Shown: positions 1 through 48,869 of the stretch, piece after piece
Numbering within the stretch: position 1 is the first letter of the stretch
Layout of the letters: every line of letters starts with the position of its first letter
Source of the DNA: Fibrobacteria bacterium
GTDB taxonomy: Bacteria; Fibrobacterota; Fibrobacteria; UBA11236
Length of the DNA stretch: 64,000 nucleotides
Reading direction: 5' to 3'
NCBI GenBank assembly: GCA_025360005.1
Contig: JANYDA010000001.1
Location: 87,144 to 151,143 of the forward strand
Program-made: the position numbers and the translations under genes
The notes under the pieces: model-generated
Database searches by the model: none
The model's input: only the letters and a program-made list of their open reading frames with translations
Told to the model about the DNA's origin: nothing

Positions 1-967
1 AGCCGAGCGGGGGGGAATCGAACCGGATCCCGGGAGAGGCGTATTCATATTCCTTCAGGACCCGGCCCACCAAGGCCCACAGGTCGACGGGTTCCAGGTT
101 CAGGATGCCGGGAGGGCTCTCCAGCCGCGCGGACTCCAGGATCTCATTGATCATTTTTTCCAGTTCCCGGACGTTCCTTCGCGCCACCTCCTTGGATTCC
201 GGCCCATCGATTTCCAGGGACAGCTTGATCCGGGTCAAAGGGGAACGGAGTTCGTGGCTCACATCCAGCAGCAGTTGTTCCTTGGATCGCATTACCTCGC
301 GGATGCCGGACAGCATCGAGTTGAAGGATTGGCCCAATTCCCCCAGCTCGTCCGTCCGCCGGATTTCCACCCGCGCATTCAGATTTCCCCGGCGGGCTTC
401 GGAAAAACCGGAGTGCAATTCCTTCAGGGGCTGGAACAATTTCCGGATCAGCCAATAGCAGATGCTGAGCACCAGCATGATGGAAAGGATCAAGAACGGT
501 ATGAACTCGATCCATTTCTCATGAATGGGTTCCTTCCCGAAGAAGAAGGCGATCCGGCACCCGTCCTTTTGCGCCAATGCGAAGCGGTGGCGTTTGAACC
601 GTCCCAGCCGTATCCCTTTCGATTCCGGGACCGGGCTCGAAAACGATTCCAGTTCCGATAGGGAGGGAAGGCCCGGCAGCGTGGACCAGGAGGATTTGGG
701 TCCTTGCAGGGCGATATCCAAGCCCCATTCGTCGGCAAGCCTCCTTCCGGTCGCCGAATCCGCGCCCGGGTCCATTTTCCCCGCCAGGAAACCCGCGAAG
801 GTCGCGCGCGACTTTTCCGAATTCGGATGATGGTTGTCTTCTACGATCAACTCCAGGAAGCCCGCGATCATCGCCACGATCAACACGCTGGATGCGATAT
901 AAGTCCCCAACAGCTTGAGGAAAATCGAAGGCCGGAAGGCTAAGGATTTGCGGCCCGCGTCAACCAT
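1..967 (-). CDS. Sensor histidine kinase (partial; C-terminus runs off the window start), cognate to the adjacent OmpR-type regulator
   Basis: My own reverse-complement translation; the ORF is absent from the track because it has no stop inside the window. N-terminus MVDAGRKSLAFRPSIFLKLLGTYIASSVLIVAMIAGFLELIV (TM helix) starts at the ATG whose complement is 965-967. A clear H-box EQLLLDVSHELRSPLTRIKLSLE lies around 250-320, and the reading continues to position 1. Its start overlaps the stop of the upstream regulator gene by a few nt. Confidence 0.7.
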   Translation of the reverse strand, partial: MVDAGRKSLAFRPSIFLKLLGTYIASSVLIVAMIAGFLELIVEDNHHPNSEKSRATFAGFLAGKMDPGADSATGRRLADEWGLDIALQGPKSSWSTLPGLPSLSELESFSSPVPESKGIRLGRFKRHRFALAQKDGCRIAFFFGKEPIHEKWIEFIPFLILSIMLVLSICYWLIRKLFQPLKELHSGFSEARRGNLNARVEIRRTDELGELGQSFNSMLSGIREVMRSKEQLLLDVSHELRSPLTRIKLSLEIDGPESKEVARRNVRELEKMINEILESARLESPPGILNLEPVDLWALVGRVLKEYEYASPGIRFDSPPLG

Positions 968-1667
968 TCGGGCCGGCGTCCCGGATGAATAGATAACCTT
1001 CCCCCCATACCGTTTTGATGTAACGCGGATGGTGGGGGTTATCCCCCAATTTCCCGCGCAGCCTGCCGATCACAACATCTATGCTGCGGTTCATGGCTTC
1101 CCACTCCACTCCTTTCGTGCGCAAGGCGATGGTATCGCGGCTGAGGATGGCACCCGCATTCGCTATGAGCAAATCGAGCACGGCGTATTCCATCCCGGTC
1201 AAGTCCAGGGATTTTCCGCCTAGGAAGGCTTGCTTGGAGGAGCCGTCCAAGGTTACCCCGCGGATGCTGTTGACTTCGGTTTTCCCCGGAAAACCGATCC
1301 GCCTGAGGACGGACTGGATACGGGCGACGAGTTCGGTAGGCTCAAAGGGTTTGGGCAGATAGTCGTCCGCCCCAAGTTGCAAGCCCCTGACCCGGTCTTG
1401 AACATCGCCTCTGGCCGTCAGCATGATGATAGGCATCCGGCTCCGGGTCCGGATCTCCCGGCATATGGCGAAACCGTCCTGGCCCGGAAGCATCACGTCC
1501 AGGATCATCAGGGTCGGGTTGGCGCTGGCAATGAGGTTCAAGGCATCCTGGGGAAGGGTGGCAGCCAGGATCTCCCAGCCGAAAGGAGACAGGTAAACCT
1601 TGAGAAGGCTGATAAGCTCTTCGTCATCGTCCAGGATTAGGAGTACCGGTTTGGGTCCGGGCTTCAA
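960..1667 (-). CDS. OmpR/PhoB-family response regulator (receiver + winged-helix DNA-binding domain)
   Basis: Receiver signature LLILDDDEEL...MLDVMLPGQDGF...DDYLPKPF and C-terminal winged-helix LTGMEYAVLDLL...VDVVIGRLRGKL...IKTVWGEGY. 235 aa. Confidence 0.9.
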   Translation of the reverse strand: MKPGPKPVLLILDDDEELISLLKVYLSPFGWEILAATLPQDALNLIASANPTLMILDVMLPGQDGFAICREIRTRSRMPIIMLTARGDVQDRVRGLQLGADDYLPKPFEPTELVARIQSVLRRIGFPGKTEVNSIRGVTLDGSSKQAFLGGKSLDLTGMEYAVLDLLIANAGAILSRDTIALRTKGVEWEAMNRSIDVVIGRLRGKLGDNPHHPRYIKTVWGEGYLFIRDAGPNG

Positions 1668-1924
1668 TACTGTCGGGCCGCCATCAAGAGAAATTACATC
1701 GACGTCGGGGCAAAAGCATCCGGTGACGGCTTGGACGGAGCCGGGGATTTCGTTTTGGATTCATTCCCGCCCGCCGTTTACATTCGGTTTACAAAAAACC
1801 GGCGTAACGGCTCCACGGTATTCCCAGTTCCCGGCCCGGGCCGGAAGAATGAATCAGGTGACGCTTCACCGGGGAGGTTCCTATCTTACCTATCCGCATA
1901 ACCTTTTGCAAAAGAGCTTGATCC

Positions 1925-2173
1925 ATGACGCGTGACGACTTGCTCCCGGTCCTTCTGAAAATAGCCCGGGACGTTACCGACGATGAGCAATTGACGTTCG
2001 CTGCCGAAACCCCGTTTGCGAAGATCGAGGCATGGGATTCCATGAATCATGTCCACATCCTGGTTGGCATGGAGGATACTTTCCGGATCCGCTTCAATGA
2101 TGCGGTGTCGTTGCAAAGCGTAGTGATCGTCCAGGACCTATTGGATATTATCGCCGGCCTGAAAGGGCTTTAG
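1925..2173 (+). CDS. Acyl/D-alanyl carrier protein (DltC-like, phosphopantetheine attachment site)
   Basis: 82-aa protein with carrier-protein Ser motif WDSMNHVHILVGMEDTF. First gene of the dlt-like operon. Confidence 0.7.
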   Translation: MTRDDLLPVLLKIARDVTDDEQLTFAAETPFAKIEAWDSMNHVHILVGMEDTFRIRFNDAVSLQSVVIVQDLLDIIAGLKGL

Positions 2174-2194
2174 TAACTGGCGGCCACCACCAGA

Positions 2195-3622
2195 TTGGCA
2201 AATGAGAAATCCTTGCAATTCCTTTCACTAGAATTCCTGGCTGCCCTAAGCGTGGTTTTCCTCGCTTACTGGGCGATACCCGCCAAGACCTGGCAAAACA
2301 TCCTGCTTCTTTCAGCCTCATTGGGGTTGGTTTTTTACCTCAGCCGGATGGCATTGGCCGTCCTGATTGTTTCCACGATATTCGAGTGGCTCTTAGCGCG
2401 GAAAATGGGCGGCCGCACGCCCGTCCAAGGCCGATCCGCCTTGCTTTGGTCGTCCATTTCCATAAACCTGGCCCAGCTCGCTTTTTTCAAATACTCCGGA
2501 TTCTTTTTGCCCCAAGCGATTGCGCTCGTTTCGCGTTTCGGCCTCAATACGGCGAGCTTGCATATCCTAATGCCCGTCGGCCTCTCCTTCTGGACCTTGC
2601 AGAAAATGACTCTCACGCTGGATGTCTATTTCCGGCGGGCCGAAGCGGAAAAAAACCTTTTGATGTGCCTGCTCTTCACCAGCTTCTTCCCCACCCTGTT
2701 GTCCGGGCCCATCGAGCGTTCCCGGGATTTGCTTCCCCAATTCCGGCGCGGACGCGTGTGGGACCCGCAGCGGTTCTCGGAAGGAGTCTGGTTGTTCGCG
2801 GTGGGCGCATTCCTTAAGGCGGTCATAGCCGATAACGTGGCCTTAAGCGCGGATGCCCTGCTCGCGCCGCGCAACTCGGGTTGGCCGCTTCTGCTGGGGA
2901 TCTGGGCGTACGCGTTGCAAATCTACGGGGACTTCGCCGGCTACTCCTACATGGCCCGCGGCATCGCCAAACTTTTCGGCCTGGAAATCACCCAGAACTT
3001 CCTGGCTCCTTATCTCGCGCGGAACCTGTCCGACTTCTGGAAACATTGGCATATCTCCTTATCGGGATGGTTGAACGAATATATTTTCGTGCCGGCTTCC
3101 ATGAAATTCCGGCGTTGGAAAACCGGCGGCATCATTTTCGCCGTTTGGTTGACGTTCATAGCCAGCGGACTCTGGCACGGAACGGGACTCACCTTCTTCA
3201 TCTACGGGTGCGTACATGCCATCGGCCTGACCTTTTTCATCCTAAGTAAAAATCTTCGCAAACGGGCTAAGGAAAGATTCGGCGGGGCCTACCTGGACGG
3301 ACTCGCCACGTTCATCACCTTCCAATATGTTTGCCTGGGATATGTTTTCTTCCGCGCCCCGGACCTCACCACTGCCCTGGCGCAGATAAAATCCATTTTC
3401 CATTCCGTGGGAAATCCGGCCGGCTCCGGGTTCGACTGGAAGATCCTGCTCGTTTCGGCGGTGACGGTTTACTGGCTGCAATCCCAGATTCGCGAAAAGA
3501 AGGACGTTTTCTGGGTGTTCAAACGTCCTATCTGGTATCGGATGGCCATCTACCTGGTGCTGGGGTTTTTCCTGCTCCGCTTTTATGCTCCCTCCGATGG
3601 ATTCATTTACTTCCAGTTTTAA
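2195..3622 (+). CDS. MBOAT-family membrane-bound O-acyltransferase (DltB/AlgI-like)
   Basis: 475 aa, polytopic and hydrophobic, with conserved-His regions (FWKHWHISLSGWL, WHGTGLTF) typical of MBOAT. Follows the carrier-protein gene. Confidence 0.85.
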   Translation: MANEKSLQFLSLEFLAALSVVFLAYWAIPAKTWQNILLLSASLGLVFYLSRMALAVLIVSTIFEWLLARKMGGRTPVQGRSALLWSSISINLAQLAFFKYSGFFLPQAIALVSRFGLNTASLHILMPVGLSFWTLQKMTLTLDVYFRRAEAEKNLLMCLLFTSFFPTLLSGPIERSRDLLPQFRRGRVWDPQRFSEGVWLFAVGAFLKAVIADNVALSADALLAPRNSGWPLLLGIWAYALQIYGDFAGYSYMARGIAKLFGLEITQNFLAPYLARNLSDFWKHWHISLSGWLNEYIFVPASMKFRRWKTGGIIFAVWLTFIASGLWHGTGLTFFIYGCVHAIGLTFFILSKNLRKRAKERFGGAYLDGLATFITFQYVCLGYVFFRAPDLTTALAQIKSIFHSVGNPAGSGFDWKILLVSAVTVYWLQSQIREKKDVFWVFKRPIWYRMAIYLVLGFFLLRFYAPSDGFIYFQF

Positions 3623-3626
3623 AGGA

Positions 3627-4700
3627 ATGCCCAAGGTGAACCCGCTAAAACCGCTCCTGCGAGATTTCCCCGCCGCCACCCGGGCGTTCCTGCTGGCTGT
3701 TTCCATCACCCTGGTTTTAACATTCGTGATGCGCGTTACGTTCCATAGCAATAAGCCCGGGGTTTTCCTGCTGGGCGATTCCGGGATCGGAAATTACCGC
3801 CTGGATCCGGGACAAAGGCTCCAGGATTTCCTCGAACGCTCCAACCCTAAGACCGAGGTGGATAACTGGGCGGAGCCCGGGGCCACTCCCATGGATTTTT
3901 TCCTGCAGTACAGCCGGGGATGCGCCCTGGCCGGCAAACCCCGCACCGCCATCATCGCCTTTTCACCCGACAAGTTCCTGGAAGCCCCGGATTTCCACCG
4001 CTTCGATGACGGCGGCGTGAACCTGAGATGGCTCCCGTGGAATTCTACGGGGTTGAAACTATTCTCCCGGCTCACCGGGAAGGAGCGGAACGCCGCCATC
4101 GTACAGCAGGCGAGCATGCCGCTCTATGCCGCGGCGGACTTGGGCAAATCCCTGTGGATCCGCTATGTGCAATGGCCGTGGGAACGTTCGCAAATGCTGA
4201 CTCCCTCCGGAGAGCGCAAGAAGCGGATCGAGATGAAATCCATCGAATCCGGAAAAGCCAAGGATACTTTGAAGCTCATCGGCGACGATGCCTTCGCCGA
4301 GCTTCCCTTGGCAAAGGATTGCGAGTTCTTGCTCCGCTCTTTGCGGGAACAAGGCGTAGAGACAAGGGTTATCCTGCTCCCGATCGGAAATCCGAAACTG
4401 ATCCGCCTGACCTATTCCAACCATGCCCAAGCCAATCAGGACTCCGTTAAGGCCAGGATGCGCCATTGGCTGGATGTCCAGGGACAATCCTATGTGGATT
4501 TCAACGCTCCCGGGGAAATGGATCATTTTCCGGACTCCACCTGGGATGACATGAGCCATTTGAAATCCCCCTCCGCTTTCGCCTACATGTCCCGGAGAAT
4601 CCAGGAGTTCCTGAGATCGGCTGCGGTACGCGATGTCCAGATGCCTTATTCTTTGGTCAACTCCAGCGGCGAGGATGGAAACGCGGACGCGAGGAATTGA
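3627..4700 (+). CDS. DltD-like / SGNH-hydrolase-fold membrane-anchored protein
   Basis: The track ORF starts at 3585; the likelier start is ATG 3627 with an AAAGGA RBS immediately after the MBOAT stop. N-terminal TM helix, then a GDS-type motif FLLGDSGIGNY. Position between MBOAT and adenylase matches DltD. Confidence 0.55.
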   Translation: MPKVNPLKPLLRDFPAATRAFLLAVSITLVLTFVMRVTFHSNKPGVFLLGDSGIGNYRLDPGQRLQDFLERSNPKTEVDNWAEPGATPMDFFLQYSRGCALAGKPRTAIIAFSPDKFLEAPDFHRFDDGGVNLRWLPWNSTGLKLFSRLTGKERNAAIVQQASMPLYAAADLGKSLWIRYVQWPWERSQMLTPSGERKKRIEMKSIESGKAKDTLKLIGDDAFAELPLAKDCEFLLRSLREQGVETRVILLPIGNPKLIRLTYSNHAQANQDSVKARMRHWLDVQGQSYVDFNAPGEMDHFPDSTWDDMSHLKSPSAFAYMSRRIQEFLRSAAVRDVQMPYSLVNSSGEDGNADARN

Positions 4701-4701
4701 C

Positions 4702-6294
4702 GTGAGGCCCGATTTTTCCCGGCCCAACCTGGCCGAGCTTTTCTATCACTCCGCTTCCGTGTCTCCTGAAAGCCAAGCCCTGGGTTGCGAGGACCTTTCC
4801 CTGACCTACGCCCAACTCCTGGATCTGGTGGAGTCCGTGCGTGTCCCGCTCGGCGCGGACGGTTCTGAGTTCGTAGGTATCCTCGCCTATCGCAGCCCGC
4901 TGGCTTATGCCGCCGTGCAGGCCATCTTGGCGGAAGGCAAAGCCTATGTTCCCCTCAATCCCCTGTTTCCCGCCTCCCGGAACGCATACATTCTCCGCAA
5001 AGCGCGAATCACCACCCTGATCGTGGGGGAAGAATGCGCGGATTCCCTGTCGGCCCTGCTGCCGGAGTTGCGGAAGGCGGCCCATCCCATCCGGTTGGTT
5101 TTCCCGGAATGGATGCCATCCTTGCGGAGCCTGGTTGATGCGGCCGGCGAGGCGGTTCTTCCGATCGAAATGAAAATGGGATCGGCCCTTTCGCCTACGC
5201 CCGTAAAAGCGATTCCGGAAGACGGGAGCGCTTATGTCCTGTTCACCTCCGGCAGTACGGGCGTGCCCAAAGGAGTGCGGGTGCGGCATGACAATGTCCT
5301 CTCCTATCTGCGTTCCTTCCTGGCCGCCTACCCCATCTACCCGCATGACCGGATTTCCCAGACCTTCGATCTCACTTTCGATGTCAGCGTGCATGACCAG
5401 TTCATCACCTGGGCCGTGGGCGCCGTCCTCATCGTGTTTCCCGTCAAATCGCTTTTCTCGCCGCTGGCCTACGCCGCCGCCCAGAAGCTGACGATATGGT
5501 TCTCGGTGCCGGCGCGCGCCGCTTTCCTGGAAAGCGCGCGTCTGGTGGTACCGGGGGCGTTACCGGACGTACGCATAAGCCTGTTCGCGGGAGAAAAGCT
5601 CACCTGGAAGACATGCGAAATCTGGAAACGGATAGCGCCCCAAAGCCGAATTCTCAACCTGTACGGGCCCACGGAAGCCACTGTCGCTTTCACCCATTTT
5701 GAAATCCCGGAGGATTTTCCGGAAACGCGCGCCTATCAAGGCGGAATCCCCATCGGCAGAGCATGGCCGGGTCAAAGCGTCCAGGTACGCGCGGCCGACG
5801 GTTCCCTTTGCCGGGCCGGGCAGGCGGGATCGCTTTGGCTGGCCGGAGATCAGCTCGCACCCGGTTACCTGGACGAACCGGAAAAAACCGCGGAGAGATT
5901 CATATCGCGCGACGGAACCCTCTGGTATCGCACCGGCGATCTGGTCATCGAGGAGGCGGATGGGGCGCTGCAATACCTGGGCCGCGAGGATTTCCAGGTG
6001 AAGGTGATGGGCTACCGGATCGAGTTGGGCGAGATCGAACATGCCCTGATGAATTGCTCGGGCGCGGCCTTTGCGCTCGCCGACGTCGCGGCCATCCGGG
6101 GAGGGATGGAAGAGATATTTTGCGTGCTTCCCGGGCATCTGGCGGAGAGCAAAAAGGAAATCACCCTTTCCCTGAAGCGCTTGCTGCCCGCTTATATGGT
6201 GCCCCGGCATATTTTTTTCATCGATGACGTCCCCTTGAACGCCAACGGCAAAATGGATCGCGGAGCCCTTAAAGCGCAACTCACGCGGTCATAA
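4702..6294 (+). CDS. AMP-dependent adenylation enzyme (DltA-like carrier-protein ligase)
   Basis: Adenylation core motifs LFTSGSTGVPKGV, NLYGPTEATV, YRTGDL, GREDFQVKVMGYRIELGEIE and NANGKMDR. GTG 4702 with a GAGGAA RBS follows the upstream stop. Alternative ATG at 4675 or the track start 4633. Confidence 0.85.
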   Translation: MRPDFSRPNLAELFYHSASVSPESQALGCEDLSLTYAQLLDLVESVRVPLGADGSEFVGILAYRSPLAYAAVQAILAEGKAYVPLNPLFPASRNAYILRKARITTLIVGEECADSLSALLPELRKAAHPIRLVFPEWMPSLRSLVDAAGEAVLPIEMKMGSALSPTPVKAIPEDGSAYVLFTSGSTGVPKGVRVRHDNVLSYLRSFLAAYPIYPHDRISQTFDLTFDVSVHDQFITWAVGAVLIVFPVKSLFSPLAYAAAQKLTIWFSVPARAAFLESARLVVPGALPDVRISLFAGEKLTWKTCEIWKRIAPQSRILNLYGPTEATVAFTHFEIPEDFPETRAYQGGIPIGRAWPGQSVQVRAADGSLCRAGQAGSLWLAGDQLAPGYLDEPEKTAERFISRDGTLWYRTGDLVIEEADGALQYLGREDFQVKVMGYRIELGEIEHALMNCSGAAFALADVAAIRGGMEEIFCVLPGHLAESKKEITLSLKRLLPAYMVPRHIFFIDDVPLNANGKMDRGALKAQLTRS

Positions 6295-6321
6295 CCGGGT
6301 TTGCATTGCCTGGGTTATCGG

Positions 6322-8922
6322 CTACGCCTTCGCTTTTGCCGCCGCTGCCGCCGCCGCCAGCTTCGGCTCCGGAAGCAGTTTCAATGCCAGCCAGGGCGTA
6401 AGACACATCGACGTCCCCAGCAAGGCCAGCAGGCCCAACACCGCGAACTTACCGATGCTGGCTATTCCCATGTGGGTGGTGAATAGCATCCCCGCATATC
6501 CGGCCGTGGTGGTCAAGGTGGAGACGGCCACCAGCACGCCGATGCCCCCATACAATTCCCCGATGCGATGGCGTCCCAGGCGCAAGTATCCCAGCAGCAT
6601 ATAGCTCCCCACGTCCACGGCATACCCTTGCAGGGTTGTGATGACGATCAGATTGAAAGGCCCGATTTTCAATCCCGACAAACCCATCAATCCCAGTATC
6701 CAAACCAGACCCACCGCCATCTGGATCAAGCAGGCGATCAGCAGGCGCCAATCCCGGAAGATCAGCGCCAGCAACAGGATCAACACCCCGACCATCCAGA
6801 TGGAAACGCGCAAGCTGTCCGATTTCACGATGTGGATGATGTCGCTGAAGACGAAGCTGGTGCTGAAGCTCGCCAACCTTTCGCCGCCGGCGGAGAGATG
6901 GCCGTAATGTTCCTGGAAAACCGAAGCATCCAGGGCGTTGGAGGAATTGTACCGTCCGTAGATGAAACCCAGGCGGCCGTAGCTGCCATCGCGCTCCCGG
7001 AGCAGGTTGAGGGCCCACGGCGGGATATCGGCGGGATGGAAGGGCGACGTCATGGCCAAGTCGCGCAAGTTGGCGATCATGGCGGAATCGTCCCCTTTGG
7101 CCCTATCGAACACGCGTGCGGAGATCAATTCCCCGATGTGGTTTATCTCCAGCATCCGTTCCTGTTGCGCCTGCACGGGCGGTACGAAAGTGGCCAAGGT
7201 AAGGAAGCTGCGCAAATACGGATCGCGGTTCACGGTGAGACGCCGGAGCAAGGTATCCTGGAGCGCGGCCATGGAAGCGGAATCCCTGGCCATGACCACT
7301 ACCGGCTGGCTGCTGGTGCGATTGCTGCCCAACGCCACGCTCACGGGCAGCCCGCCATCCTTCTCGCCGCGCGTGTCGCGCAATTTGGAGAAGTCGTATT
7401 CAAAAGCCAGGCGCGGTATGAAAAAGCCAAGCACCAGGGCACCCGCGCAAACGGTGAGGGCCGTTCCCTTTACCAGCTTGGGCCAATCCGGCCGCCATGA
7501 GAAGGGCCAACGGATCGGATCAGCCGCCCTGATGCGCAGCCATGCGAATCCCGGCACCGAGCCGAGGCTTTCCATAGCGAACAGGTATGCGGGCAAAAGC
7601 AGGTAGACGCCGGCTAGGCTCACCACTATACCTGCCGAGGCCTGGACGCCGAACTCATAGAAACCCACGAATTTGGAAGCCAGCAAGGTCAGCAAACCGG
7701 CCACGGTAGTGGATGCGCCCACCAGCAAGGAGAAGAAAAGCTCATCGAGTGTCCTGGCAAGCGCCGTCGCCCAATCCTCGCCCTCCCGGACCAGTCGCAG
7801 CGCGTACCCCAGCACGTAGATGGAAAAATCGATCCCCATGCCGAACAGGATGGAGACCACGAAAGCCGTATACAAATTCAAATGGCCATAGATACCCATG
7901 GTCAGGGCCAAAGTCACCAAGCAAGCGATGACCGCCTGCAAGAAAACCAGGAACACGGAACCGAAATTTCGGAAAAACGCCGCGATGATGAGGATGTTCA
8001 GTCCCACGGATATCAAGGTTGCCAATAAGCCGTTGCTCGCCAGCGAGTCCACCTCCGCCAATTCCTTGTAAGGGCCCTCCACGCCGATATTCAGCCGCGC
8101 GCCGTATTCGGAACGCAAGGGGCCCAGCAAGGCATGGCTGCGCGCCACTACCGTCTTCACGTAATCGAAATCGGAGCTGGGCTTGGACAGCGATGCCTGC
8201 ACCAATCCCACCAACTTGCCCTCGCGGGTCCTTCCCATCAGGCGGGAACGGAGCGAATCGGGGATGCCGCTCTTGGAGTCGTATTGATCCGCGCCGGTCT
8301 TTCCCTTTTTCAAAAACCGGGTGAAGGACTCGGCGGCCTCGTCCGGAAGTCCCAACTGCTGGGGCAAGTCCGCGTCGAACCACTCCCGCTTGGGTTTGGC
8401 GGCCGCCGAATCCTCGTCCAGAAGATCGACGGTCAATGGCCCTTGCTTGCCCAGGTCCAGCCTCAAGTCCTGGATCTCCCGCGAGATTTTCCGCAACTGA
8501 TCCTGGGGCAGGTAAAGCAATGCGTGTTTGCGGAAAAAGGAATTGTCGCGCTGCGATTGGGCATAGACTACGTCCGGCCACTTCCGCAGCGAATCCGCAA
8601 GCCTATCCTGGATGCGGGCCAGTTCCGCGGGATCCTGGATTGAGATGGCGATGGTATAGAGGTCGGAACTGCCCAAGCGGGTCTTGGCCTCGCGCATGGC
8701 GCGGATGGTTTCCGTGTTCCGCGGCAGCAGGGCGTCGAGATTGGCGTCTATGCGCAGATGGGTGGCATAGAATCCGCAGAGCGCGGAGGCGCCGAGACTG
8801 ATTGCCACGATGAGGAAACGATGGCGTTGGGAACGGCGGATATGCGACAGCAGCAACCGTTTCCAAAACCCGGCTTGGCGGGAGGATGTACCGACAAGGT
8901 TATTTTTCTTCGTTGATGTCAC
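6322..8922 (-). CDS. MMPL / RND-superfamily exporter (two 6-TM bundles with large periplasmic loops)
   Basis: 866 aa; duplicated MMPL-type transmembrane architecture (…GIDFSIYVLGY… and …GYAVDVGSYML…); C-terminal Ala/Lys tail. Its start overlaps the upstream lipoprotein gene by 23 nt. Confidence 0.8.
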   Translation of the reverse strand: MTSTKKNNLVGTSSRQAGFWKRLLLSHIRRSQRHRFLIVAISLGASALCGFYATHLRIDANLDALLPRNTETIRAMREAKTRLGSSDLYTIAISIQDPAELARIQDRLADSLRKWPDVVYAQSQRDNSFFRKHALLYLPQDQLRKISREIQDLRLDLGKQGPLTVDLLDEDSAAAKPKREWFDADLPQQLGLPDEAAESFTRFLKKGKTGADQYDSKSGIPDSLRSRLMGRTREGKLVGLVQASLSKPSSDFDYVKTVVARSHALLGPLRSEYGARLNIGVEGPYKELAEVDSLASNGLLATLISVGLNILIIAAFFRNFGSVFLVFLQAVIACLVTLALTMGIYGHLNLYTAFVVSILFGMGIDFSIYVLGYALRLVREGEDWATALARTLDELFFSLLVGASTTVAGLLTLLASKFVGFYEFGVQASAGIVVSLAGVYLLLPAYLFAMESLGSVPGFAWLRIRAADPIRWPFSWRPDWPKLVKGTALTVCAGALVLGFFIPRLAFEYDFSKLRDTRGEKDGGLPVSVALGSNRTSSQPVVVMARDSASMAALQDTLLRRLTVNRDPYLRSFLTLATFVPPVQAQQERMLEINHIGELISARVFDRAKGDDSAMIANLRDLAMTSPFHPADIPPWALNLLRERDGSYGRLGFIYGRYNSSNALDASVFQEHYGHLSAGGERLASFSTSFVFSDIIHIVKSDSLRVSIWMVGVLILLLALIFRDWRLLIACLIQMAVGLVWILGLMGLSGLKIGPFNLIVITTLQGYAVDVGSYMLLGYLRLGRHRIGELYGGIGVLVAVSTLTTTAGYAGMLFTTHMGIASIGKFAVLGLLALLGTSMCLTPWLALKLLPEPKLAAAAAAAKAKA

Positions 8923-9709
8923 CGGAAGCCTCTATCTTTTGACGGATCCGCAATCCCGCGCCTTGGCAAAACCCGTCGCCCGCGAGCAAAGTAACCCCGG
9001 AATCGCCGGCGGTCGAACCGCTGGCCTCCAGGCAATTTTTCAAATCGACGGTTTTGAACCAATCGTCGACGGTCAATTGCAACAGCAGCTTATTCAGGGC
9101 CGCCGCGGTGATCCTGATCCCGGTGGGACCGTCGAAATCCAATCCGTCCCGCAGATTGAGGCGGACGGAAAACGGCCTTGCCCGGCCGTCCGCGCTATCC
9201 GTCCCCCCCCTGATTTCCATGTTCGGGGTGTTGGTATCCACGGCGGGCGCGGACTCGTTATCGGAAAGCTCCAGGCCGACCCGGGTATAAACGCCTTCCG
9301 GCAAGCGCAGATGTTCCAAAGGCGGATTGGACGCGCCGGTCATCAGATCGACGACGAAAGGCCCCGGAAGCGAAATCCCATCGCTGTCGCACGTGTATCC
9401 GGGAGCCGATTCGCAAGTCAATCCCACCGGAAGACTGAGATCGATTTTGCGCACCGCAATGGTGAGGGAAGAGATCTTGATGGCGGAACCCGCGGAGTCG
9501 AACACCTCGAACGTACCATCCGGGTTACGTATGACCGCGGCGGCGCTTTTCCGCAGCACCGAATCGGTAAGCGAATTGGCCCTGAACACCAACGCGACTT
9601 CGGCCAGGGGCGGGTTGCCGGCGCCCGTTCCGCCGGACACTTTTTCCGGCTGGCAGCGCAGGAGCACCAACCCCAGCGCCAGAACCGCCGCCCTCATTCC
9701 CGGGCTCAT
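8900..9709 (-). CDS. Lipoprotein paralogue 1 (GGTGAGNPPL family; Fibrobacter-type partner of TIGR02147)
   Basis: Likely start MSPGMRAAVLALGLVLLRC with a GAAGGA RBS. Mature N-terminus CQPEKVSGGTGAGNPPL. Shares VDDWF and LAGDGFC blocks with the 10623-11453 paralogue. Confidence 0.6.
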   Translation of the reverse strand: MSPGMRAAVLALGLVLLRCQPEKVSGGTGAGNPPLAEVALVFRANSLTDSVLRKSAAAVIRNPDGTFEVFDSAGSAIKISSLTIAVRKIDLSLPVGLTCESAPGYTCDSDGISLPGPFVVDLMTGASNPPLEHLRLPEGVYTRVGLELSDNESAPAVDTNTPNMEIRGGTDSADGRARPFSVRLNLRDGLDFDGPTGIRITAAALNKLLLQLTVDDWFKTVDLKNCLEASGSTAGDSGVTLLAGDGFCQGAGLRIRQKIEASGDINEEK

Positions 9710-10545
9710 TGCGGATCCTTCTTTACCCGGGTCAAAGGGAACAATTGGAGATTGACTTGGTAGACTGCTTCGGCGTGCTGCTGGGTGCCGGCAAAATCGA
9801 GGATGTCCCTCCAAATCACCTCCATGCGCGACTTCAATTCCAGGAATGCGCTTTGGGTGAGGCCGATGGTCACCGAACGCACATCGCGTTCGCCAGGACC
9901 GAAATGCTTAAGCGCATCCTGCCCCAACTGCATGGCCGCCAGGTGGTAATTCCGGAGCGCGAGTTGGCTGGCCTCCGACTCCGTGGCTATGACGGGGTCC
10001 GCAAGACGCCAAGCCATGGTTTCCGGATCCAACCGGACGAGCCCCAGCTTTTGCAGCACATCCCTCGCGCCGTCGACTTGGGCGGCGGTCAGGCGGGGGA
10101 AGATGCGCTCCGCAATCCATCCGCTGGTTCCGTCGAAGCCAGGGTGAGTCATCAATTCCCGGACCACGGGATTGTACCAATTGCTGAAGAACTCATATTG
10201 CGATTTGTCCAGGGTCTTTACCGCGGCATACCGTTTGTTCTTCAGGATGTTTTGGTAGAAAAGGTTTTTTTCATCCCAGCTCTTGGCTTGGCCGTAGCCA
10301 ACCAGGTTCTGCAGGAATTCCGTTTCCGTACGATTGAGTTTGAATGCCTTTGCCACGGCAACGGCATACTTGGAACTTAGGTTCCGCTTTCCCTGGATGA
10401 CCATTTGCAGGAAGTTGGGAGAGGAAAACCCGGAGCGTTTGGCGAAAGTCCGGAATGAAAGCTTTGGGGAATCGGCCTTCAAGGCCGCGAAAGCATCCCG
10501 AAGATAATCGCGGTATTCGAGATAGGTATGGATGTCCGGTTTCAT
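9706..10545 (-). CDS. TIGR02147-family protein (Fibrobacter succinogenes paralogous family), copy 1; N-terminal HTH-like
   Basis: MKPDIHTYLEYRDYLRDAF…SFRTFAKRSGFSSPNFLQMVIQGKRNLS…QYEFFSNWY. The track ORF begins at 10587; the start was chosen by alignment to the other two copies. Confidence 0.75.
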   Translation of the reverse strand: MKPDIHTYLEYRDYLRDAFAALKADSPKLSFRTFAKRSGFSSPNFLQMVIQGKRNLSSKYAVAVAKAFKLNRTETEFLQNLVGYGQAKSWDEKNLFYQNILKNKRYAAVKTLDKSQYEFFSNWYNPVVRELMTHPGFDGTSGWIAERIFPRLTAAQVDGARDVLQKLGLVRLDPETMAWRLADPVIATESEASQLALRNYHLAAMQLGQDALKHFGPGERDVRSVTIGLTQSAFLELKSRMEVIWRDILDFAGTQQHAEAVYQVNLQLFPLTRVKKDPQ

Positions 10546-10622
10546 GGATGGGAAGCGTTCCCAACCAAGCGGGCCGGGGAATCCCAATTATACAAAATCG
10601 CCGACGGTAAAAACGTCCGGAT

Positions 10623-11453
10623 TCAGGGTTGTTCCACCTGATCCTCATAGTTGATTCCGCCGGATGCCTCGATGTTCCGCCTCACCCTTATGCCGGTCCC
10701 GGAACAGAAACCGTCCCCTTGCAATCGGACAATGCCGGCGCTATCGGAACCGGCCGGGGAGGCGGCCATGCAAGCCTGCATATCCGTCCCCTGGAACCAG
10801 TCGTCCACGTTCAAACCCAAAAGGATGTTGTTCAGAGTATCCGATTTGATCCTTACTCCCACGGGATCTCCGAAATCCAAGCCCTCGGTAAGGTTAATCC
10901 GGATCACGAATCGTTGGCCTGCGGACCCCAGCGCGCCCATCCTTCCCCACAGGACGATATTCTGGCTCGTCGAATCCCAATCGGTCAAGGAGTCCTGTTT
11001 GTTCGCAATCAGTTTAAACCCGATCTTCCGGTAGAGTCCCGCCGGGATCTTGAAAACATTCAAAGCCGGATGGGATATCCCACGCAGCAAATCCAGGTCG
11101 AACGGACCTTCCAGGGTGGTTTCACCGTCCTTGCAGGGAAGCCCGGAAAAGATGGGGCAATCGAGACTGTCCGGCAATGCGAAATCGATGCCCTCCACGC
11201 GCGACACGATGGAATCAAGCGATAACACGGCTCCGGCGGAATCCCGTATCACGAATCCGCTGTCCAAGGCGATGAGGCCGGAGGCGGTGGATTTGGGCAG
11301 AATCCTGGGGCCTGAGGATTTCGCCTTGAGAGCCAAGGTCACCTCGCCGAGCGGCGGGTTCCCTGCGCCCGCGCCTCCGGCTACGCGTTCAGGAATGCAT
11401 TGGAAAAAGGAGATGCAGGTAAGCATGAGGCAAAGACGGAGTACCGGAATCAT
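10623..11453 (-). CDS. Lipoprotein paralogue 2 (GGAGAGNPPL family)
   Basis: Signal peptide MIPVLRLCLMLTCISFFQC. Mature N-terminus CIPERVAGGAGAGNPPL. Paralogous to 8900-9709. Starts 1 nt after the stop of TIGR02147 copy 2. Confidence 0.6.
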   Translation of the reverse strand: MIPVLRLCLMLTCISFFQCIPERVAGGAGAGNPPLGEVTLALKAKSSGPRILPKSTASGLIALDSGFVIRDSAGAVLSLDSIVSRVEGIDFALPDSLDCPIFSGLPCKDGETTLEGPFDLDLLRGISHPALNVFKIPAGLYRKIGFKLIANKQDSLTDWDSTSQNIVLWGRMGALGSAGQRFVIRINLTEGLDFGDPVGVRIKSDTLNNILLGLNVDDWFQGTDMQACMAASPAGSDSAGIVRLQGDGFCSGTGIRVRRNIEASGGINYEDQVEQP

Positions 11454-11454
11454 A

Positions 11455-12306
11455 TCAAACCTTTCCCTCGCGGGAGGAAGGGCCCCGGGTCAGCGGAAAC
11501 AATTGCAGATTCACCTGGTATACCGCATCGGTCTCGCGCTGGGTTCCCGCGATTTCCAAAACTTCTTTCCACACGTTTTCGATTCTGGATTTCAATTCTC
11601 CATAGGCTTCATGGGATAGGCCGATGGTTACCGAGCGGACATCCCTTTCCGCGGGCCCGAATACTTTCAGGCTATCATGCGCCAACTGGATCGCGGCCAT
11701 ATGGTAGTTGCGAATCCCCAGGTGGGTGGTCTCCGAATCCGTGCTTACCACCGTGTCCACCAAGCGCCAGCGACCGGAATCCGGGTCCAAACGGACCAAG
11801 TCCAGGTTCGTCAGCAGGGTTTTGGCGGAGTCCACCTGGGCGATGGTGATGCGCGGGAAAATACGCTCCGCGATCCATCCGCTGCTCCCGTCGAACTCCT
11901 TGTGCACCAGCAGCTCGCGGACGACGGGGATGTACCAATGGGTGAAAAATTCATACTGGGATTTGTCGAGGTATTTCGCCGAGGCATAGCGCGCGTTGCG
12001 CAATATCTTCTGGTAGTAAAGATTTTTTTCGTCGAGACTCTTGGCTTGGTCGTAGCCCACCAGGTACTGGAAGAAATCCGTCTCCTGTTTGTTCAGCTTG
12101 AAGGCCTTGGCAGCGACCACGGCATTCGTGGAACTCAAATTGCGCTTTCCCAAGATGACCATTTGCAGGAAGTTCGGAGACGTGAATCCCGCTTTTTTTG
12201 CGAAGGTCCGGTAAGACATGCGGGGTGAGGCCTTTTGGATAGCCGTGAAGGCGTCCTTAAGGTAGGCCCGATACTGGATGTATTTGAAGATATCCGGTTT
12301 GTTCAT
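11455..12306 (-). CDS. TIGR02147-family protein, copy 2
   Basis: MNKPDIFKYIQYRAYLKDAF…SYRTFAKKAGFTSPNFLQMVILGKRNLS…QYEFFTHWY. The track ORF extends to 12381; the internal Met was chosen by alignment. Confidence 0.75.
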   Translation of the reverse strand: MNKPDIFKYIQYRAYLKDAFTAIQKASPRMSYRTFAKKAGFTSPNFLQMVILGKRNLSSTNAVVAAKAFKLNKQETDFFQYLVGYDQAKSLDEKNLYYQKILRNARYASAKYLDKSQYEFFTHWYIPVVRELLVHKEFDGSSGWIAERIFPRITIAQVDSAKTLLTNLDLVRLDPDSGRWRLVDTVVSTDSETTHLGIRNYHMAAIQLAHDSLKVFGPAERDVRSVTIGLSHEAYGELKSRIENVWKEVLEIAGTQRETDAVYQVNLQLFPLTRGPSSREGKV

Positions 12307-12388
12307 AAAGATGGCTTCCCACTCCGCGGTCGGTTGCCGGGAAGCGGCGATGCCATGGGCACCGCCGCTGTTGAACGGCAAAGAAAGG

Positions 12389-12862
12389 TTATTTCACCTC
12401 CGTGGTGTCGCCACCGGCATGGCCGGACGCTTCCTGTCCTTCGACAGCGTCCTTAACGCCGCCGACCTCTCCATCCTTCTTATCCTCGGTTTTGGTCGAA
12501 TCCGATTTTTCTTCGTCGCCGCCTTTCCCGGCTTCGGTGCCTTCCGCACCTGAATGGTGATCCTTTTCATCGCAACCCGCGACTTCGGCGGAATCCTTTA
12601 CTTCAGTAGAATCCTTTACTTCAGTAGAATCCTTTTCATCGGCCACTTTGGCGCTATCGCCGTCCTCGTGACCTTTCCCCATGGCTTTTTCATGGCTGCA
12701 GCCGGTGCTACCGGTATCGACCACGCCGCCCTTGGTCTGGGTGGACAGGGCTCCGTTGGAATTGCTTGCAGGGTCGGAAATGCCCAGACATCCGGCCATA
12801 AAAGCCAGCGACAGGCATCCTGCCCCCAAGGTGAGAGTATTCCGCATAATGACTCGATTCAT
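12389..12862 (-). CDS. Small acidic secreted lipoprotein with KDSTEV tandem repeats
   Basis: Signal peptide plus lipobox-like LAFMAGC. Low-complexity Asp/Glu/Lys/Gly-rich body with His and Cys. An 18-bp tandem DNA repeat at 12591-12644 encodes KDSTEV KDSTEV KDSAEV. Confidence 0.5.
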   Translation of the reverse strand: MNRVIMRNTLTLGAGCLSLAFMAGCLGISDPASNSNGALSTQTKGGVVDTGSTGCSHEKAMGKGHEDGDSAKVADEKDSTEVKDSTEVKDSAEVAGCDEKDHHSGAEGTEAGKGGDEEKSDSTKTEDKKDGEVGGVKDAVEGQEASGHAGGDTTEVK

Positions 12863-13126
12863 ATTCGTTCTCCAATGTTAGCGTTGACCTGGGGCGACTC
12901 TTCGCTCCGGAACTTAAGATAACATCGATAATAATTCATGATCAAATATTATATATTTTAATATGATTCATCATTATTTACATAAGACATTGATTTTAAA
13001 TATGTTATAGGATAATAAATTTTTAGATTATTTTTATTATGAACCCATTATGATTCATTTAAGTCCGTTTTTGGGAAAATTCGTTTCGCAGTTACTAGGT
13101 TTGGAACCAGTGTCAAGGAGGATATT
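12863..13126. promoter_or_regulatory. AT-rich divergent intergenic/promoter island with two copies of the palindromic motif ATGAnTCAT
   Basis: About 230 bp of >75% A+T inside a GC-rich context. ATGATTCAT occurs at 12963-12971 and 13050-13058. Flanked by divergently transcribed genes (12862 minus, 13127 plus). Confidence 0.5.
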
Positions 13127-15035: not shown

Positions 15036-16295
15036 GTGATCATTCCCTTTCTGGTATTGCTGCTTTCCGGATTTGCGGCAGCTACCCCCGATTCCCTCTC
15101 TCTGGAAGATTGCCTGGCGCTGGCGCGGGAGAGTAATCCCCGTTCCCGGCTATCCGCGAATTCGATCCTGGGTTGGGATTTGTCGCGGCAGGAACTCAAA
15201 GCGCGCAACCGGCCTCAGGTCAAGTTCAAAGGCATCTTTGAGTACGCTCCCGTCGGCAAATACTATGGGTACGATCCGGGCCTAACTAACGGCGGTCAAC
15301 TGGGCAGCCAGATAGCGGTGGAACAAACCGTTTATGACGGCGGCATCACGGGCATCAAGTCCCGGCAAGCCGATTTGGGATGGTCCCGGTCCAACCATGA
15401 GCAAAAATTGGCCGGGCTGGATCTGGAATACGATGTCACGCAGGCATTCACCGAGGTATTGCGGCTGCAAGAGGATTCGGCCCTGAAACAAACCGGCTTG
15501 GCAAGGCTGCGGGAATACTCCGGCCTGGTCGAGCGGATGCATGCCGGAGGCCAAGCCGGGTATACCGACTTGCTCAAGACGCGCATCCATGTTTCCGAAT
15601 CCGAATCGGCGGCCAAGCTTACCAATGCCGATCTGGAAAGCGCAAAATACGCCCTGGCGGAACTCATCGGTCTGGAGCCGTCCGCGTCCATCCAGGTGAA
15701 AGGCGAATTGGATGCGCCGTTCGATCCGATGCCGTTGGATACCACCGTGAATGCGGATTGGAAGATCGCGGAACTGGAAACGCAAATCGCCGACTTGGAC
15801 GTAGCCGCGGCGCGCAGCGAGTGGAAGCCCACTCTTTCCGTGGCGGCGGATATCGGGTTGCTCACCTCCATCGACAATCTGAAAGCGGCGCCGCAGGACC
15901 GGGCCAATATGCTGGGGGCATCCGTGGGGATGCATTTGGACATGCCCATTTTTTCCTGGGGATTGGCAAAGACCCATCTCCTACAGAGCCGGCTCGCCGT
16001 GGAGAACGCGCGGTGGCAATGGCGGGCGCATCGGCGGGAACTGCTCTTCGGATACCGCAAAGCCCTGATGCAATGGGAAGCGGCGCGGGATCATCTGAGC
16101 GGATTGCGGGCCGATCTCACCGCGGCCAAGGACAATTTCGACCTGACCAAGGCGAAATACGCGGGCGGTTCGGGACTGGCCTCCGAGGTCCTGGACGCCC
16201 ATCAGCTCTGGGTGGAAACGCAAGCCAGCCTGCTGCAGGCCCGGGCCGATTTACGGAACCTGGGCGCCAGGCTGAAGCGGTTGGAAGCCCGTTAG
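15036..16295 (+). CDS. TolC-family outer-membrane efflux factor (CzcC-like)
   Basis: 419 aa. N-terminal signal, LSLEDCLALARESNP, OEP repeat structure. Precedes the MFP and RND genes in czcCBA order. GTG start. Confidence 0.85.
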   Translation: MIIPFLVLLLSGFAAATPDSLSLEDCLALARESNPRSRLSANSILGWDLSRQELKARNRPQVKFKGIFEYAPVGKYYGYDPGLTNGGQLGSQIAVEQTVYDGGITGIKSRQADLGWSRSNHEQKLAGLDLEYDVTQAFTEVLRLQEDSALKQTGLARLREYSGLVERMHAGGQAGYTDLLKTRIHVSESESAAKLTNADLESAKYALAELIGLEPSASIQVKGELDAPFDPMPLDTTVNADWKIAELETQIADLDVAAARSEWKPTLSVAADIGLLTSIDNLKAAPQDRANMLGASVGMHLDMPIFSWGLAKTHLLQSRLAVENARWQWRAHRRELLFGYRKALMQWEAARDHLSGLRADLTAAKDNFDLTKAKYAGGSGLASEVLDAHQLWVETQASLLQARADLRNLGARLKRLEAR

Positions 16296-16308
16296 GGCGG
16301 ATGGGGAG

Positions 16309-17319
16309 ATGCGCGTGAAGGCTTATGGAAAAGGAAAATCGATATCCTTGCTTTGCCTGCTGATTCCATTGGGTTGTTCCCGGCACGCCAAGGAAGCGGA
16401 AGAGGCCGCCGCCGCGGCGCCCATCGTCGAGGTCAAATTGGACTCCCTGGTATCGGGCCCGGCCGAGGATGCGCTTTTTGCCACCGGCCGCACCGATGTT
16501 TTGGGCAAGGAGAACGTGGCCTCCCCGATCGCCGGAAAGCTGTTGGCCTTGAAGGCATCCGAAGGCGCTTCGGTAAAACCGGGGCAAGTGGTGGCCTTGG
16601 TGCGCACCAAGGAATCGGAATCCGCCGTGGAGGGAGCGCAGGCATTGTTGAATGGAGCGGGAAGCGATGCCGAAAGACGGGAAGCCAAAAGGGCCTTGGA
16701 CCTGGCTCTGGCTACCCAAAGCACCCTTTCGTTGCGGGCCAAACAAGGCGGCGTAGTGGCCAGCCGCCTGGCCCAGGAGGGAGAGCAGATCGTCGAAAAC
16801 CAAAGTCTGATGCTGATCCTGGATCTGAGTACCCTGGATTTCCAGGCAGAGGTTCCCTTGTCCGGAATCGAACGCATCCGCGTGGGGCAGTCGGCCACGG
16901 TCAGCTTGCAGGCATTGCCGGGATCGGTTTTTTCCGCGCAGGTCCAGGCCATTCTGCCCCAGATCCAGACGGCCAGCCAGACCTTGTCCATCCGGCTGCG
17001 CTTCACGGGCCGGCCGGGCGATGGGATGCGCGGGGTTTTGAAAGCCGATATGGCGGGCGAAGCGCGTGTCATCCTTTCCACCCGGCCCAATTCGCTCTTG
17101 GCCCCCAAAACCGCCTTGTTGCGCAGCGATGAAGACGGCAGTTATTCCCTGGTGACGGTGGGTCCGGATTCCTTGGCGCACATAGTGAAGGTCAAACCCG
17201 GGTCTCCGCAGGGAGAGCGCGTGGAAATCCTGGGCGATGGTTTACGCCCGGGCCTGCGGGTGGTGACCCAGGGCCAGCATGGCTTGGCGGATTCCACCAA
17301 GGTCAAACCCGTTCCATGA
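16309..17319 (+). CDS. RND efflux periplasmic adaptor (membrane fusion protein, HlyD/CzcB-like lipoprotein)
   Basis: 336 aa; lipobox LGCS; biotinyl-lipoyl-like and beta-barrel MFP regions. Overlaps the RND gene start by 4 nt. Confidence 0.85.
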   Translation: MRVKAYGKGKSISLLCLLIPLGCSRHAKEAEEAAAAAPIVEVKLDSLVSGPAEDALFATGRTDVLGKENVASPIAGKLLALKASEGASVKPGQVVALVRTKESESAVEGAQALLNGAGSDAERREAKRALDLALATQSTLSLRAKQGGVVASRLAQEGEQIVENQSLMLILDLSTLDFQAEVPLSGIERIRVGQSATVSLQALPGSVFSAQVQAILPQIQTASQTLSIRLRFTGRPGDGMRGVLKADMAGEARVILSTRPNSLLAPKTALLRSDEDGSYSLVTVGPDSLAHIVKVKPGSPQGERVEILGDGLRPGLRVVTQGQHGLADSTKVKPVP

Positions 17320-22539: not shown

Positions 22540-22615
<76 letters not shown>

Positions 22616-48855: not shown

Positions 48856-48869
48856 TAGGCTCCGGTTTT

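Follow-up and report, generated by a model that had tools for sequence, protein, structure and literature searches.

In the Dlt pathway of Firmicutes, an aminoacyl group moves from a stand-alone adenylase to a small carrier protein, through an MBOAT (membrane-bound O-acyltransferase) to the tyrosine of an FxYxxF motif, and on to a membrane-anchored SGNH protein. This acyl-shuttle motif lies on a separate microprotein, DltX, whose tyrosine receives D-alanine from the carrier DltC via the MBOAT DltB (Anderson, Schultz et al., PMC12148441). MBOATs such as PatA and AlgI have the motif fused to their C terminus on two extra transmembrane (TM) helices, and PatA auto-acetylates its own tyrosine from acetyl-CoA (PMC12148441). 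The published picture is a dichotomy, with a carrier donor and DltX in the Dlt pathway, and an acyl-CoA donor, a fused motif and no carrier in all other MBOAT/SGNH pathways (PMC12148441). Among diderm bacteria, AlmE of the Vibrio cholerae AlmEFG system loads glycine destined for lipid A onto the carrier AlmF (PMC12930378), and the Bordetella pertussis dra locus is cited as an earlier case in which a component of the outer membrane is aminoacylated by way of a carrier (Taneja et al. 2013, as cited in PMC9410548). Here we describe a four-gene operon (positions 1925–6294) that encodes a carrier protein, an MBOAT, an SGNH-fold protein and an adenylase in a 64,000-nucleotide stretch of a Fibrobacteria bacterium (contig JANYDA010000001.1, positions 87,144 to 151,143), referred to below as the window. 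The operon probably directs carrier-dependent aminoacyl transfer, in which a periplasm-exposed envelope molecule would be esterified with a small alpha-amino acid.

Genes were identified by listing and translating open reading frames (ORFs) and by Pfam and NCBIfam profile searches and PDB sequence searches. From first to last, the four genes are separated by 21 bp, then by 4 bp, and finally overlap by 26 bp, which indicates a single transcript. The adenylase matches PF00501 (E 1.9e-55; 188.7 bits against a threshold of 29.9) and the amino-acid adenylation model TIGR01733 (E 1e-91), for which its 307.8 bits are marginally under the cut-off of 317.4; the best fatty-acid ligase model is far weaker (E 3.8e-45). 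Its solved relatives in the PDB are adenylation domains of nonribosomal peptide synthetases (NRPSs) and stand-alone small-amino-acid ligases, including AlmE and DltA. With the pocket region alone, AlmE (4oxi) scored 163 bits, which was second overall and the top score among enzymes of known small-substrate specificity, and the DltA entries scored 100–130 bits. The preliminary description of this DNA had raised the question of whether the adenylase clusters with fatty-acyl-AMP ligases and had proposed an analysis of its specificity pocket; the enzyme groups with amino-acid adenylation domains, and its pocket is AlmE-like.

We set the specificity-code positions (in order, 235, 236, 239, 278, 299, 301, 322, 330, 331 and 517) on PheA numbering through an alignment with 1AMU, Bacillus subtilis DltA (3e7w) and AlmE (4oxi), in which D236 and K526 of the window enzyme align to PheA D235 and K517. 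The code reads DVHFLALVAK in the window adenylase, DLHLFCLIAK in AlmE and DLMTMCTVAK in DltA. The enzyme has the AMP-binding fold, Asp235 and Lys517 of an NRPS-type amino-acid adenylation domain, and the presence of these two residues argues for an alpha-amino acid substrate. The bulky residues His239, Phe278, Leu299 and Leu322 suggest that the pocket fits only a very small side chain. AlmE shares His239 and Leu322, and DltA does not. The code is kept across 12 orthologues, 2 of which carry Leu236 and Cys301, as AlmE does. From this pocket we favour glycine as the predicted substrate, with alanine or D-alanine as alternatives. A fatty-acyl or aryl substrate was considered and rejected, because the enzyme has Asp235 and fits the amino-acid model much more closely than any fatty-acid ligase model. 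Other uses of the same ligase–carrier module are seen in the planctomycete Symmachiella macrocystis (L023, 8001–14284), where an adenylase relative of about 40% identity, with its own carrier, lies beside a carbamoyltransferase gene and a GNAT-like gene, and in deltaproteobacterium TL4 (L026, 8001–11544), where a relative of similar identity, also with its own carrier, lies beside genes for a formyltransferase and an aminoglycoside N-acetyltransferase-like protein.

The second gene product is a member of the MBOAT superfamily (PF03062; 68.5 bits against a gathering threshold of 27; E 8e-19) and has the catalytic histidine: W327-H328-G329 aligns with the WHG of DltB, and His328 is the predicted catalytic residue. 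Translation may start at TTG 2195 or at TTG 2213; a start at 2252, as called automatically, cuts off conserved residues. DltB is the sole NCBIfam and PDB family match of this protein, and the resemblance is partial, because the DltB model TIGR04091 gives 172.2 bits (cut-off 375) over residues 7–386 of 475 only, and solved DltB (6bug/8jem) matches residues 120–387 (E 2e-20). The protein continues for about 90 residues past the DltB-homologous core; this C-terminal part has two hydrophobic helices, ends in F470-IYFQ-F475 and thereby places a tyrosine, Tyr472, in an FxYxxF motif. A six-frame scan of the 64 kb for ORFs ending in F.Y..F returned the MBOAT only and no DltX-like microprotein. The absence of a separate DltX is explained by the fusion of the acyl-shuttle hexapeptide to the MBOAT C terminus. 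Outside its own clade, the nearest homologues of the MBOAT are hundreds of proteins of 470–485 aa from many phyla, 35–39% identical over 98–99% of the length, and 117 of the 120 closest end in F.Y..F. By these sequence features the MBOAT is placed in the fused-motif AlgI/PatA-type group. The preliminary description had held that a different acylation pathway would be indicated if the adenylase clustered with fatty-acyl-AMP ligases and the MBOAT with wax-ester/alginate acetylases. The MBOAT does group with alginate-type acylases, and the adenylase does not group with fatty-acyl ligases; with an alginate-type MBOAT and an amino-acid-type adenylase, the system is a hybrid.

The third protein matches no Pfam or NCBIfam family over threshold, DltD included, and no PDB sequence at E values up to 10. 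It has an N-terminal TM helix (about residues 15–39) preceded by basic residues. In an alignment of 33 sequences, G50-D51-S52, G85 (in EPGA), G254-N255 (in GNP) and W306-D-D308-x-x-H311 are invariant, and with them the predicted catalytic residues Ser52, Asp308 and His311 and the predicted oxyanion residues Gly85 and Asn255. Blocks I (GDS), II (G), III (GxN) and V (DxxH), together with the SGNH fold, identify a member of the SGNH/GDSL superfamily. The structure model is confident; the modelled fold matches SGNH proteins, with the longest alignments to DltD. The preliminary description had called this protein DltD-like, and in architecture the term holds: the N-terminal anchor, the extracytoplasmic SGNH fold and the Ser-Asp-His triad are those of DltD, and the helical inserts are also DltD-like. 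As a statement of family membership it does not. Relatives number 47 among 5.8 billion clustered proteins, and a profile built from 33 relatives retrieved 42 representatives from 1.84 billion proteins, none of them DltD, with matches ending abruptly at about E 1e-9. At the sequence level, the protein is one of a distinct, small and sharply bounded family that is separate from the DltD family.

A second, stand-alone SGNH paralogue occurs away from any MBOAT in some Fibrobacteria metagenome-assembled genomes (MAGs; L006/L007/L019, L013 and L016). In L006, the paralogue (8001–9023) comes after a CapB(Mur_ligase_M)/CapC-like cluster for the synthesis of poly-gamma-glutamate and is itself followed by two GSDH genes. 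Poly-gamma-glutamate was considered as a clue to the acceptor from L006/L007/L019 and rejected, since the adjacency is not repeated in L013 and L016 and the polymer offers no hydroxyl acceptor.

The carrier protein carries Ser39 within the motif (E/P)WDS(M/L)NH, of which WDS is invariant in 12 orthologues, and Ser39 is the putative phosphopantetheine attachment site. The closest PDB match is a putative acyl carrier protein (ACP; 2lml, E 1.4e-8). In NCBIfam, generic ACP models alone matched (at most 26.6 bits; PRK12449, E 4.2e-6, below cut-off), the DltC model was not among the matches, and the Pfam PP-binding family was also unmatched.

To assess conservation, we combined tblastn of the window proteins against all fetched loci (cited here by L numbers) with precomputed gene calls. 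The order carrier–MBOAT–SGNH–adenylase is kept in about 12 independent loci at 41–83% protein identity, and a 4.4-Mb Fibrobacteres MAG contig (L025) has the order carrier–MBOAT–adenylase–SGNH. Recurrence of the four-gene arrangement is far beyond chance, and the concern in the preliminary description that the genes might not be syntenic in related genomes is thereby answered. In all 13 of 13 loci, the cassette MBOAT ends in FIY(F/Q)QF. A scan for the SGNH protein over one genome per GTDB species gave 13 loci, 11 in uncultured Fibrobacteria/Fibrobacterota MAGs and 2 in Myxococcales-labelled MAGs; the closest species representative is 68% identical in this protein. The window thus comes from an uncultured Fibrobacteria lineage, and the preliminary description was right to place it among FCB genomes. 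An analogous cassette is present in Verrucomicrobiae (L024, 659–9623; L027, 619–9641), with an adenylase 40–42% identical to that of the window. Here the order is PF00884 protein, SGNH-like protein (GDS...DxxH, N-terminal TM helix), MBOAT (ending in FVYLQF), carrier (84–94 aa, IDSF motif), LVIVD-repeat protein and adenylase.

This synteny bears on a first alternative, in which the MBOAT and its SGNH partner are a standard O-acetylation pair of the PatAB/AlgIJ kind, fed by acetyl-CoA and acting on peptidoglycan or an exopolysaccharide, and the carrier and adenylase serve another pathway. The pair does resemble PatA/PatB, AlgI/AlgJ(X) and WssH-type systems, in that the MBOAT, of about 470–485 aa, has a pair of additional helices at its C terminus, closes with FxYxxF and is teamed with an SGNH protein that is extracytoplasmic; the full-length similarity to widespread AlgI/PatA-type MBOATs with the terminal motif and a Flavobacteriales relative that sits in a plain two-gene MBOAT–partner pair lacking carrier and adenylase both speak for this alternative, as does the statement that fused-motif MBOAT pathways are carrier-free (PMC12148441). 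Those systems are described with an acyl-CoA donor, whereas the window pair is syntenic with a carrier and an adenylase. In about 12 loci, the carrier gene stands immediately before the MBOAT gene, and the SGNH gene is overlapped or immediately followed by the adenylase gene; the association survives reordering in L025 and transfer to other phyla (L024/L027 and the Myxococcales-labelled MAGs), and the short gaps and the overlap indicate one transcript. Carrier and adenylase genes, and it is of genes only that we speak, flank the pair in about 13 loci. Consequently, we regard the acetylation pair as unlikely.

The preliminary description had called the four genes the functional equivalent of dltABCD. 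As a functional analogue (adenylase, carrier, MBOAT and extracytoplasmic SGNH protein) this is apt; as orthologues it fails, because all four proteins are below threshold or unmatched. The chain of parts is that of the Dlt pathway; among solved proteins, DltB alone is related in sequence to the MBOAT, and no structural alignment of the SGNH protein is longer than that with DltD. A true dltABCD orthologue from Firmicutes that D-alanylates a teichoic-acid-like polymer could draw on these resemblances, on the labels 'D-alanine--poly(phosphoribitol) ligase' and 'DltB' that JGI pipelines give to relatives, and on code positions 330 and 331 of the adenylase, which match DltA. We nevertheless consider orthology very improbable, and the Pfam, NCBIfam and PDB sequence searches led us to reject it. 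The adenylase falls well short of the DltA models (TIGR01734, 237.3 bits, cut-off 559.85; NF003417, 243 bits, cut-off 476), and the other three proteins are likewise under the Dlt equivalog cut-offs or unmatched. Of the 10 pocket positions, 6 are not those of DltA, and AlmE is the nearer of the two enzymes. The two-helix extension and fused FxYxxF of the MBOAT are missing from DltB, there is no DltX microprotein of the kind described (PMC12148441), and the SGNH protein is of an unrelated sequence family whose profile finds no DltD. The gene order C-B-D-A is unlike that of dlt, and the host is a diderm, in which no teichoic acid is expected.

AlmEFG offers a second comparison. Among solved enzymes of known small-amino-acid specificity, AlmE is closest in the pocket, with D235, H239, L322, A331 and K517 shared, and both systems have a stand-alone carrier and a diderm host; almEFG, moreover, is under two-component control (PMC12930378). 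The difference lies in the transferase: AlmG is a lipid A acyltransferase of the cytoplasmic face, whereas transfer by the window system is predicted to be periplasmic, through the MBOAT and SGNH proteins. Pfam and tblastn synteny searches found no AlmG/LpxL-type acyltransferase in or near the cassette, which sets it outside AlmEFG. The dra genes of B. pertussis are reportedly close dlt homologues in a dlt-like order; the window genes, by contrast, are not dlt orthologues, a comparison made with dra by description only.

Given these likenesses, we propose the following route for carrier-dependent aminoacyl transfer. The adenylase would activate the amino acid as aminoacyl-AMP and join it by a thioester bond to the phosphopantetheine arm that the carrier would bear at Ser39, a step suggested by the domain content, Asp235 and Lys517, and the AlmE-like pocket. 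The MBOAT, through His328, would receive the aminoacyl group on the cytoplasmic side from the carrier and move it across the membrane onto its own Tyr472 at the periplasmic face, as suggested by the strict synteny and by analogy to DltB-to-DltX transfer and to PatA auto-acylation. Ser52 of the SGNH protein would then accept the aminoacyl group from the tyrosine ester and pass it to a hydroxyl or amine of the acceptor, again on the strength of strict synteny and by analogy to DltD and PatB.

A possible functional partner of the operon is the MMPL transporter encoded 27 bp beyond the adenylase gene in convergent orientation. It matches PF03176 (42.4 bits against a threshold of 20.5; E 5.7e-11). 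HpnN is its closest described relative, being its only PDB match (5khn and 6wu0) and the source of its best NCBIfam model, TIGR03480; the protein is nonetheless far below the cut-offs of the HpnN models (TIGR03480, 163.4 bits against 751.85; NF052374, 96.2 bits against 1100), and the window showed no genes for hopanoid biosynthesis. An MMPL gene adjoins the cassette in 6 of about 11 distinct loci and in three arrangements: the window, L009/L010, L011, L015 and L017 (63–82% identical), and L004/L021, a Myxococcales-labelled MAG in which the MMPL is a distant paralogue (25% identity) co-directional with the operon. From the convergent MMPL, the preliminary description had drawn the suggestion that the product is a lipid or glycolipid, and the neighbour does recur in about half of the related loci. 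Because this HpnN-like protein recurs, our leading guess for the acceptor, towards which the evidence points weakly, is a lipid or glycolipid bound for the outer membrane.

The same neighbour could be taken to mean that the product of the cassette is a secondary metabolite, a small lipid or lipo-amino acid that is exported, with the MBOAT O-acylating a lipid alcohol, the MMPL exporting the product and no envelope polymer decorated. The adenylase relatives of about 40% identity in tailoring contexts that lack an MBOAT (L023 and L026) would fit such a role. We think it improbable, since the conserved cassette has no condensation, thioesterase, polyketide synthase or fatty-acyl-activating genes, the MMPL is missing from about half of the loci, and a periplasmic shuttle motif paired with an SGNH transferase outside the cytoplasm marks systems that acylate envelope polymers (PMC12148441).

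The cassettes of L024/L027 contain further neighbours that may bear on the acceptor. Each is headed by a gene for a 624-aa membrane protein of the PF00884 sulfatase family (also matching Phosphodiest), and a secreted LVIVD/Ig-repeat protein of about 775 aa is encoded between the carrier and the adenylase. The PF00884 family includes LtaS, OpgB and EptA. The PF00884 neighbour in Verrucomicrobiae therefore hints at a phosphoglycerol- or phosphoethanolamine-bearing acceptor, which we take as a lead only.

Several points weigh against aminoacyl transfer to an envelope molecule as set out above. All of the mechanistic steps are ones that we infer by homology, synteny and analogy. The nearest relatives of the MBOAT outside its clade are ordinary two-gene pairs without a carrier, and the non-Dlt MBOAT/SGNH pathways are described as carrier-free with an acyl-CoA donor (PMC12148441). 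It is synteny, and synteny alone, that leads from the MBOAT to the carrier, because its relatives are carrier-free and fused-motif MBOATs are assumed to be acyl-CoA users. The carrier itself scores weakly as an ACP, with all curated models under cut-off. The specificity code of the adenylase is identical to AlmE at only 5 of 10 positions and to DltA at 4 of 10, so that glycine is a preference and not a firm call. The MMPL gene is not adjacent in L002/L003, L008, L018, L020 and L025, and in the window it is not co-transcribed with the operon, because the two are convergent. In the rest of the 64-kb window, we found no lipopolysaccharide, lipid A, hopanoid or glycan synthesis genes that would give a clue to the acceptor.

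As judged from its sequences, the window system sits between the Dlt type and the acyl-CoA fused-motif type. The combination, the SGNH family and the setting in poorly studied diderm phyla are new; the parts and the chemistry are already known. Our searches of the searchable open-access literature found no description of a carrier-dependent fused-motif MBOAT. A more ambitious proposal, which we offer tentatively and regard as doubtful when taken as a whole, is that the cassette represents a previously unrecognized envelope modification of diderms (Fibrobacterota, Verrucomicrobiota and some Myxococcota-labelled MAGs). In this proposal, a carrier-fed MBOAT with a fused tyrosine and a new family of SGNH transferases would esterify an outer-membrane lipid or glycolipid with glycyl or alanyl groups in the periplasm, often coupled to an HpnN-like MMPL, and the system would link the acetyl-CoA-type systems to Dlt, DltX having arisen by fission of the MBOAT C-terminal helices. 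If the operon works by the route of aminoacyl transfer proposed above, fused-motif MBOATs would not be limited to acyl-CoA donors, charge-altering aminoacyl decoration of the envelope would reach environmental diderm phyla in which none of that kind is known, and evolution could plausibly have passed between the carrier/DltX and acyl-CoA/fused-motif types. The operon is also predicted to define a small new family of SGNH transferases.

A two-component system (TCS) is encoded divergently from the operon. The histidine kinase has two TM helices, a periplasmic loop, and HAMP (4.6e-14) and HisKA (9.5e-11) domains in Pfam; its start (967) overlaps the stop of the response regulator gene (960) by 8 bp, and the two genes are translationally coupled. 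The regulator has Response_reg (8.3e-27) and Trans_reg_C (9.6e-21) domains, which makes the pair an OmpR/PhoB-family TCS. Its best NCBIfam matches are OmpR and RpaB (about 210 bits), and no equivalog (OmpR, PhoP, PmrA, CpxR and others) reaches cut-off. In the 257-bp intergenic region (1668–1924) shared with the operon, two GTTTACA copies separated by 4 nt repeat with 11-bp periodicity. Such periodicity is typical of OmpR/PhoB-family sites, and we take the repeat to resemble the enterobacterial PhoP box. It is the only match in the 64 kb, even when 2 mismatches are allowed; 5 of 100 shuffles also give at least one match. By its sequence, the repeat is a candidate binding site of the response regulator, and the TCS may regulate the operon in this genome.

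The preliminary description had likened this arrangement to GraRS/PhoPQ control, that is, a dedicated regulator of the operon in an envelope-charge circuit. Divergent adjacency across a shared intergenic region, the unique PhoP-box-like repeat and a precedent in the activation of almEFG by CarRS (PMC12930378) favour such a circuit of the GraRS, PhoPQ or CarRS kind. We hold it to be possible but rather unlikely. In none of the other loci is the cassette adjoined by an OmpR-type response regulator or histidine kinase, and for several of them, among which is the closest relative, L014, the upstream sequence extends over 8 kb. The regions upstream of the cassette in the other loci lack the repeat, which arises in shuffled sequence at the frequency given above. 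The link is adjacency in one genome, and the TCS is not part of the conserved system. The window and L014 share a different element, AATGAATCAGGTGAC(G/A)CTTC (1848–1869), about 60–80 bp upstream of the carrier start, which could be a promoter or operator or could reflect the mere relatedness of the two sequences. Predicted sigma-70 promoters and intrinsic terminators in 1500–9200 did not exceed the shuffle expectation and were uninformative. Elsewhere in the window, there are two large hybrid histidine kinases (MASE1/PAS...HisKA-HATPase-REC-Hpt; 36583–40662, minus strand, and 57786–60158, plus strand), a LuxR-type regulator (35803–36498, plus strand) and a single-domain receiver (56945–57412, minus strand). 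Because the region is rich in signalling genes, a TCS beside the operon is less remarkable.

Table 1 Features of the operon and its surroundings in the window
Feature	Position	Strand	Basis
Sensor histidine kinase, N-terminal 322 aa, partial at window edge	1..967	-	HAMP, HisKA
OmpR/PhoB-family response regulator, 235 aa	960..1667	-	Response_reg + Trans_reg_C
Direct repeat GTTTACA-N4-GTTTACA, PhoP-box-like, candidate regulator site	1776..1793	+	Read in divergent intergenic region
Stand-alone carrier protein, 82 aa	1925..2173	+	Weak ACP matches, Ser39 motif
MBOAT, 475 aa	2195..3622	+	PF03062, His328, terminal FIYFQF
Membrane-anchored extracytoplasmic SGNH-fold protein, 357 aa	3627..4700	+	Motifs and fold
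Stand-alone amino-acid adenylation enzyme, 539 aa	4675..6294	+	PF00501, TIGR01733
HpnN-like MMPL/RND (HAE3-type) transporter	6322..8922	-	PF03176, TIGR03480

The kinase–regulator pair, the carrier, MBOAT, DltD-like and adenylase genes and the convergent MMPL gene of the preliminary description were all recovered (Table 1), and the ORF coordinates bear out its gene order C-B-'D'-A. Gene calls also agree in a 12.8-kb Logan contig (L001) that is identical to the window. The GC content of the region is 56–60%, which is the sense in which it had been called GC-rich. That the host is a diderm, as had been supposed, is indicated by a complete tripartite RND efflux operon (15036–20399) that encodes a TolC-like outer-membrane protein (OEP), an HlyD-type adaptor and an AcrB-type pump.

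A 5′ riboswitch, for example a glycine riboswitch, was sought as a clue to the substrate and rejected: a Rfam search of positions 1–13000 at E values up to 1 returned one chance-level match, to the mraW RNA (2687–2786, plus strand; 24.9 bits against a gathering threshold of 50; E 0.16), within the coding sequence of the MBOAT. Immediately downstream of the MMPL gene (8900–12381, minus strand) are two tandem copies of one gene pair, each comprising a putative lipoprotein (about 270–300 aa, no Pfam match) and a DUF4423/TIGR02147 'Fibrobacter succinogenes paralogous family' protein. Similar lipoprotein/DUF4423-like pairs lie near the cassette or the SGNH paralogue in L006 and L025, and a third DUF4423 gene in the window (30531–31388, plus strand) is followed by a gene for a Laminin_G_3 protein (region 30531–32749). 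A tRNA-Lys(CTT) gene on the minus strand adjoins a tyrosine recombinase gene (Phage_integrase and SAM-like N domain; 22540–23643), which is xerC/D-like or else marks the border of an integrated element. Finally, positions 42492–56924 hold a probable polysaccharide-utilization cluster that encodes two alginate-lyase-family proteins, a GH95 protein, an FG-GAP protein, a GSDH protein, a 3-keto-disaccharide hydrolase and a xylose-isomerase-like TIM barrel.

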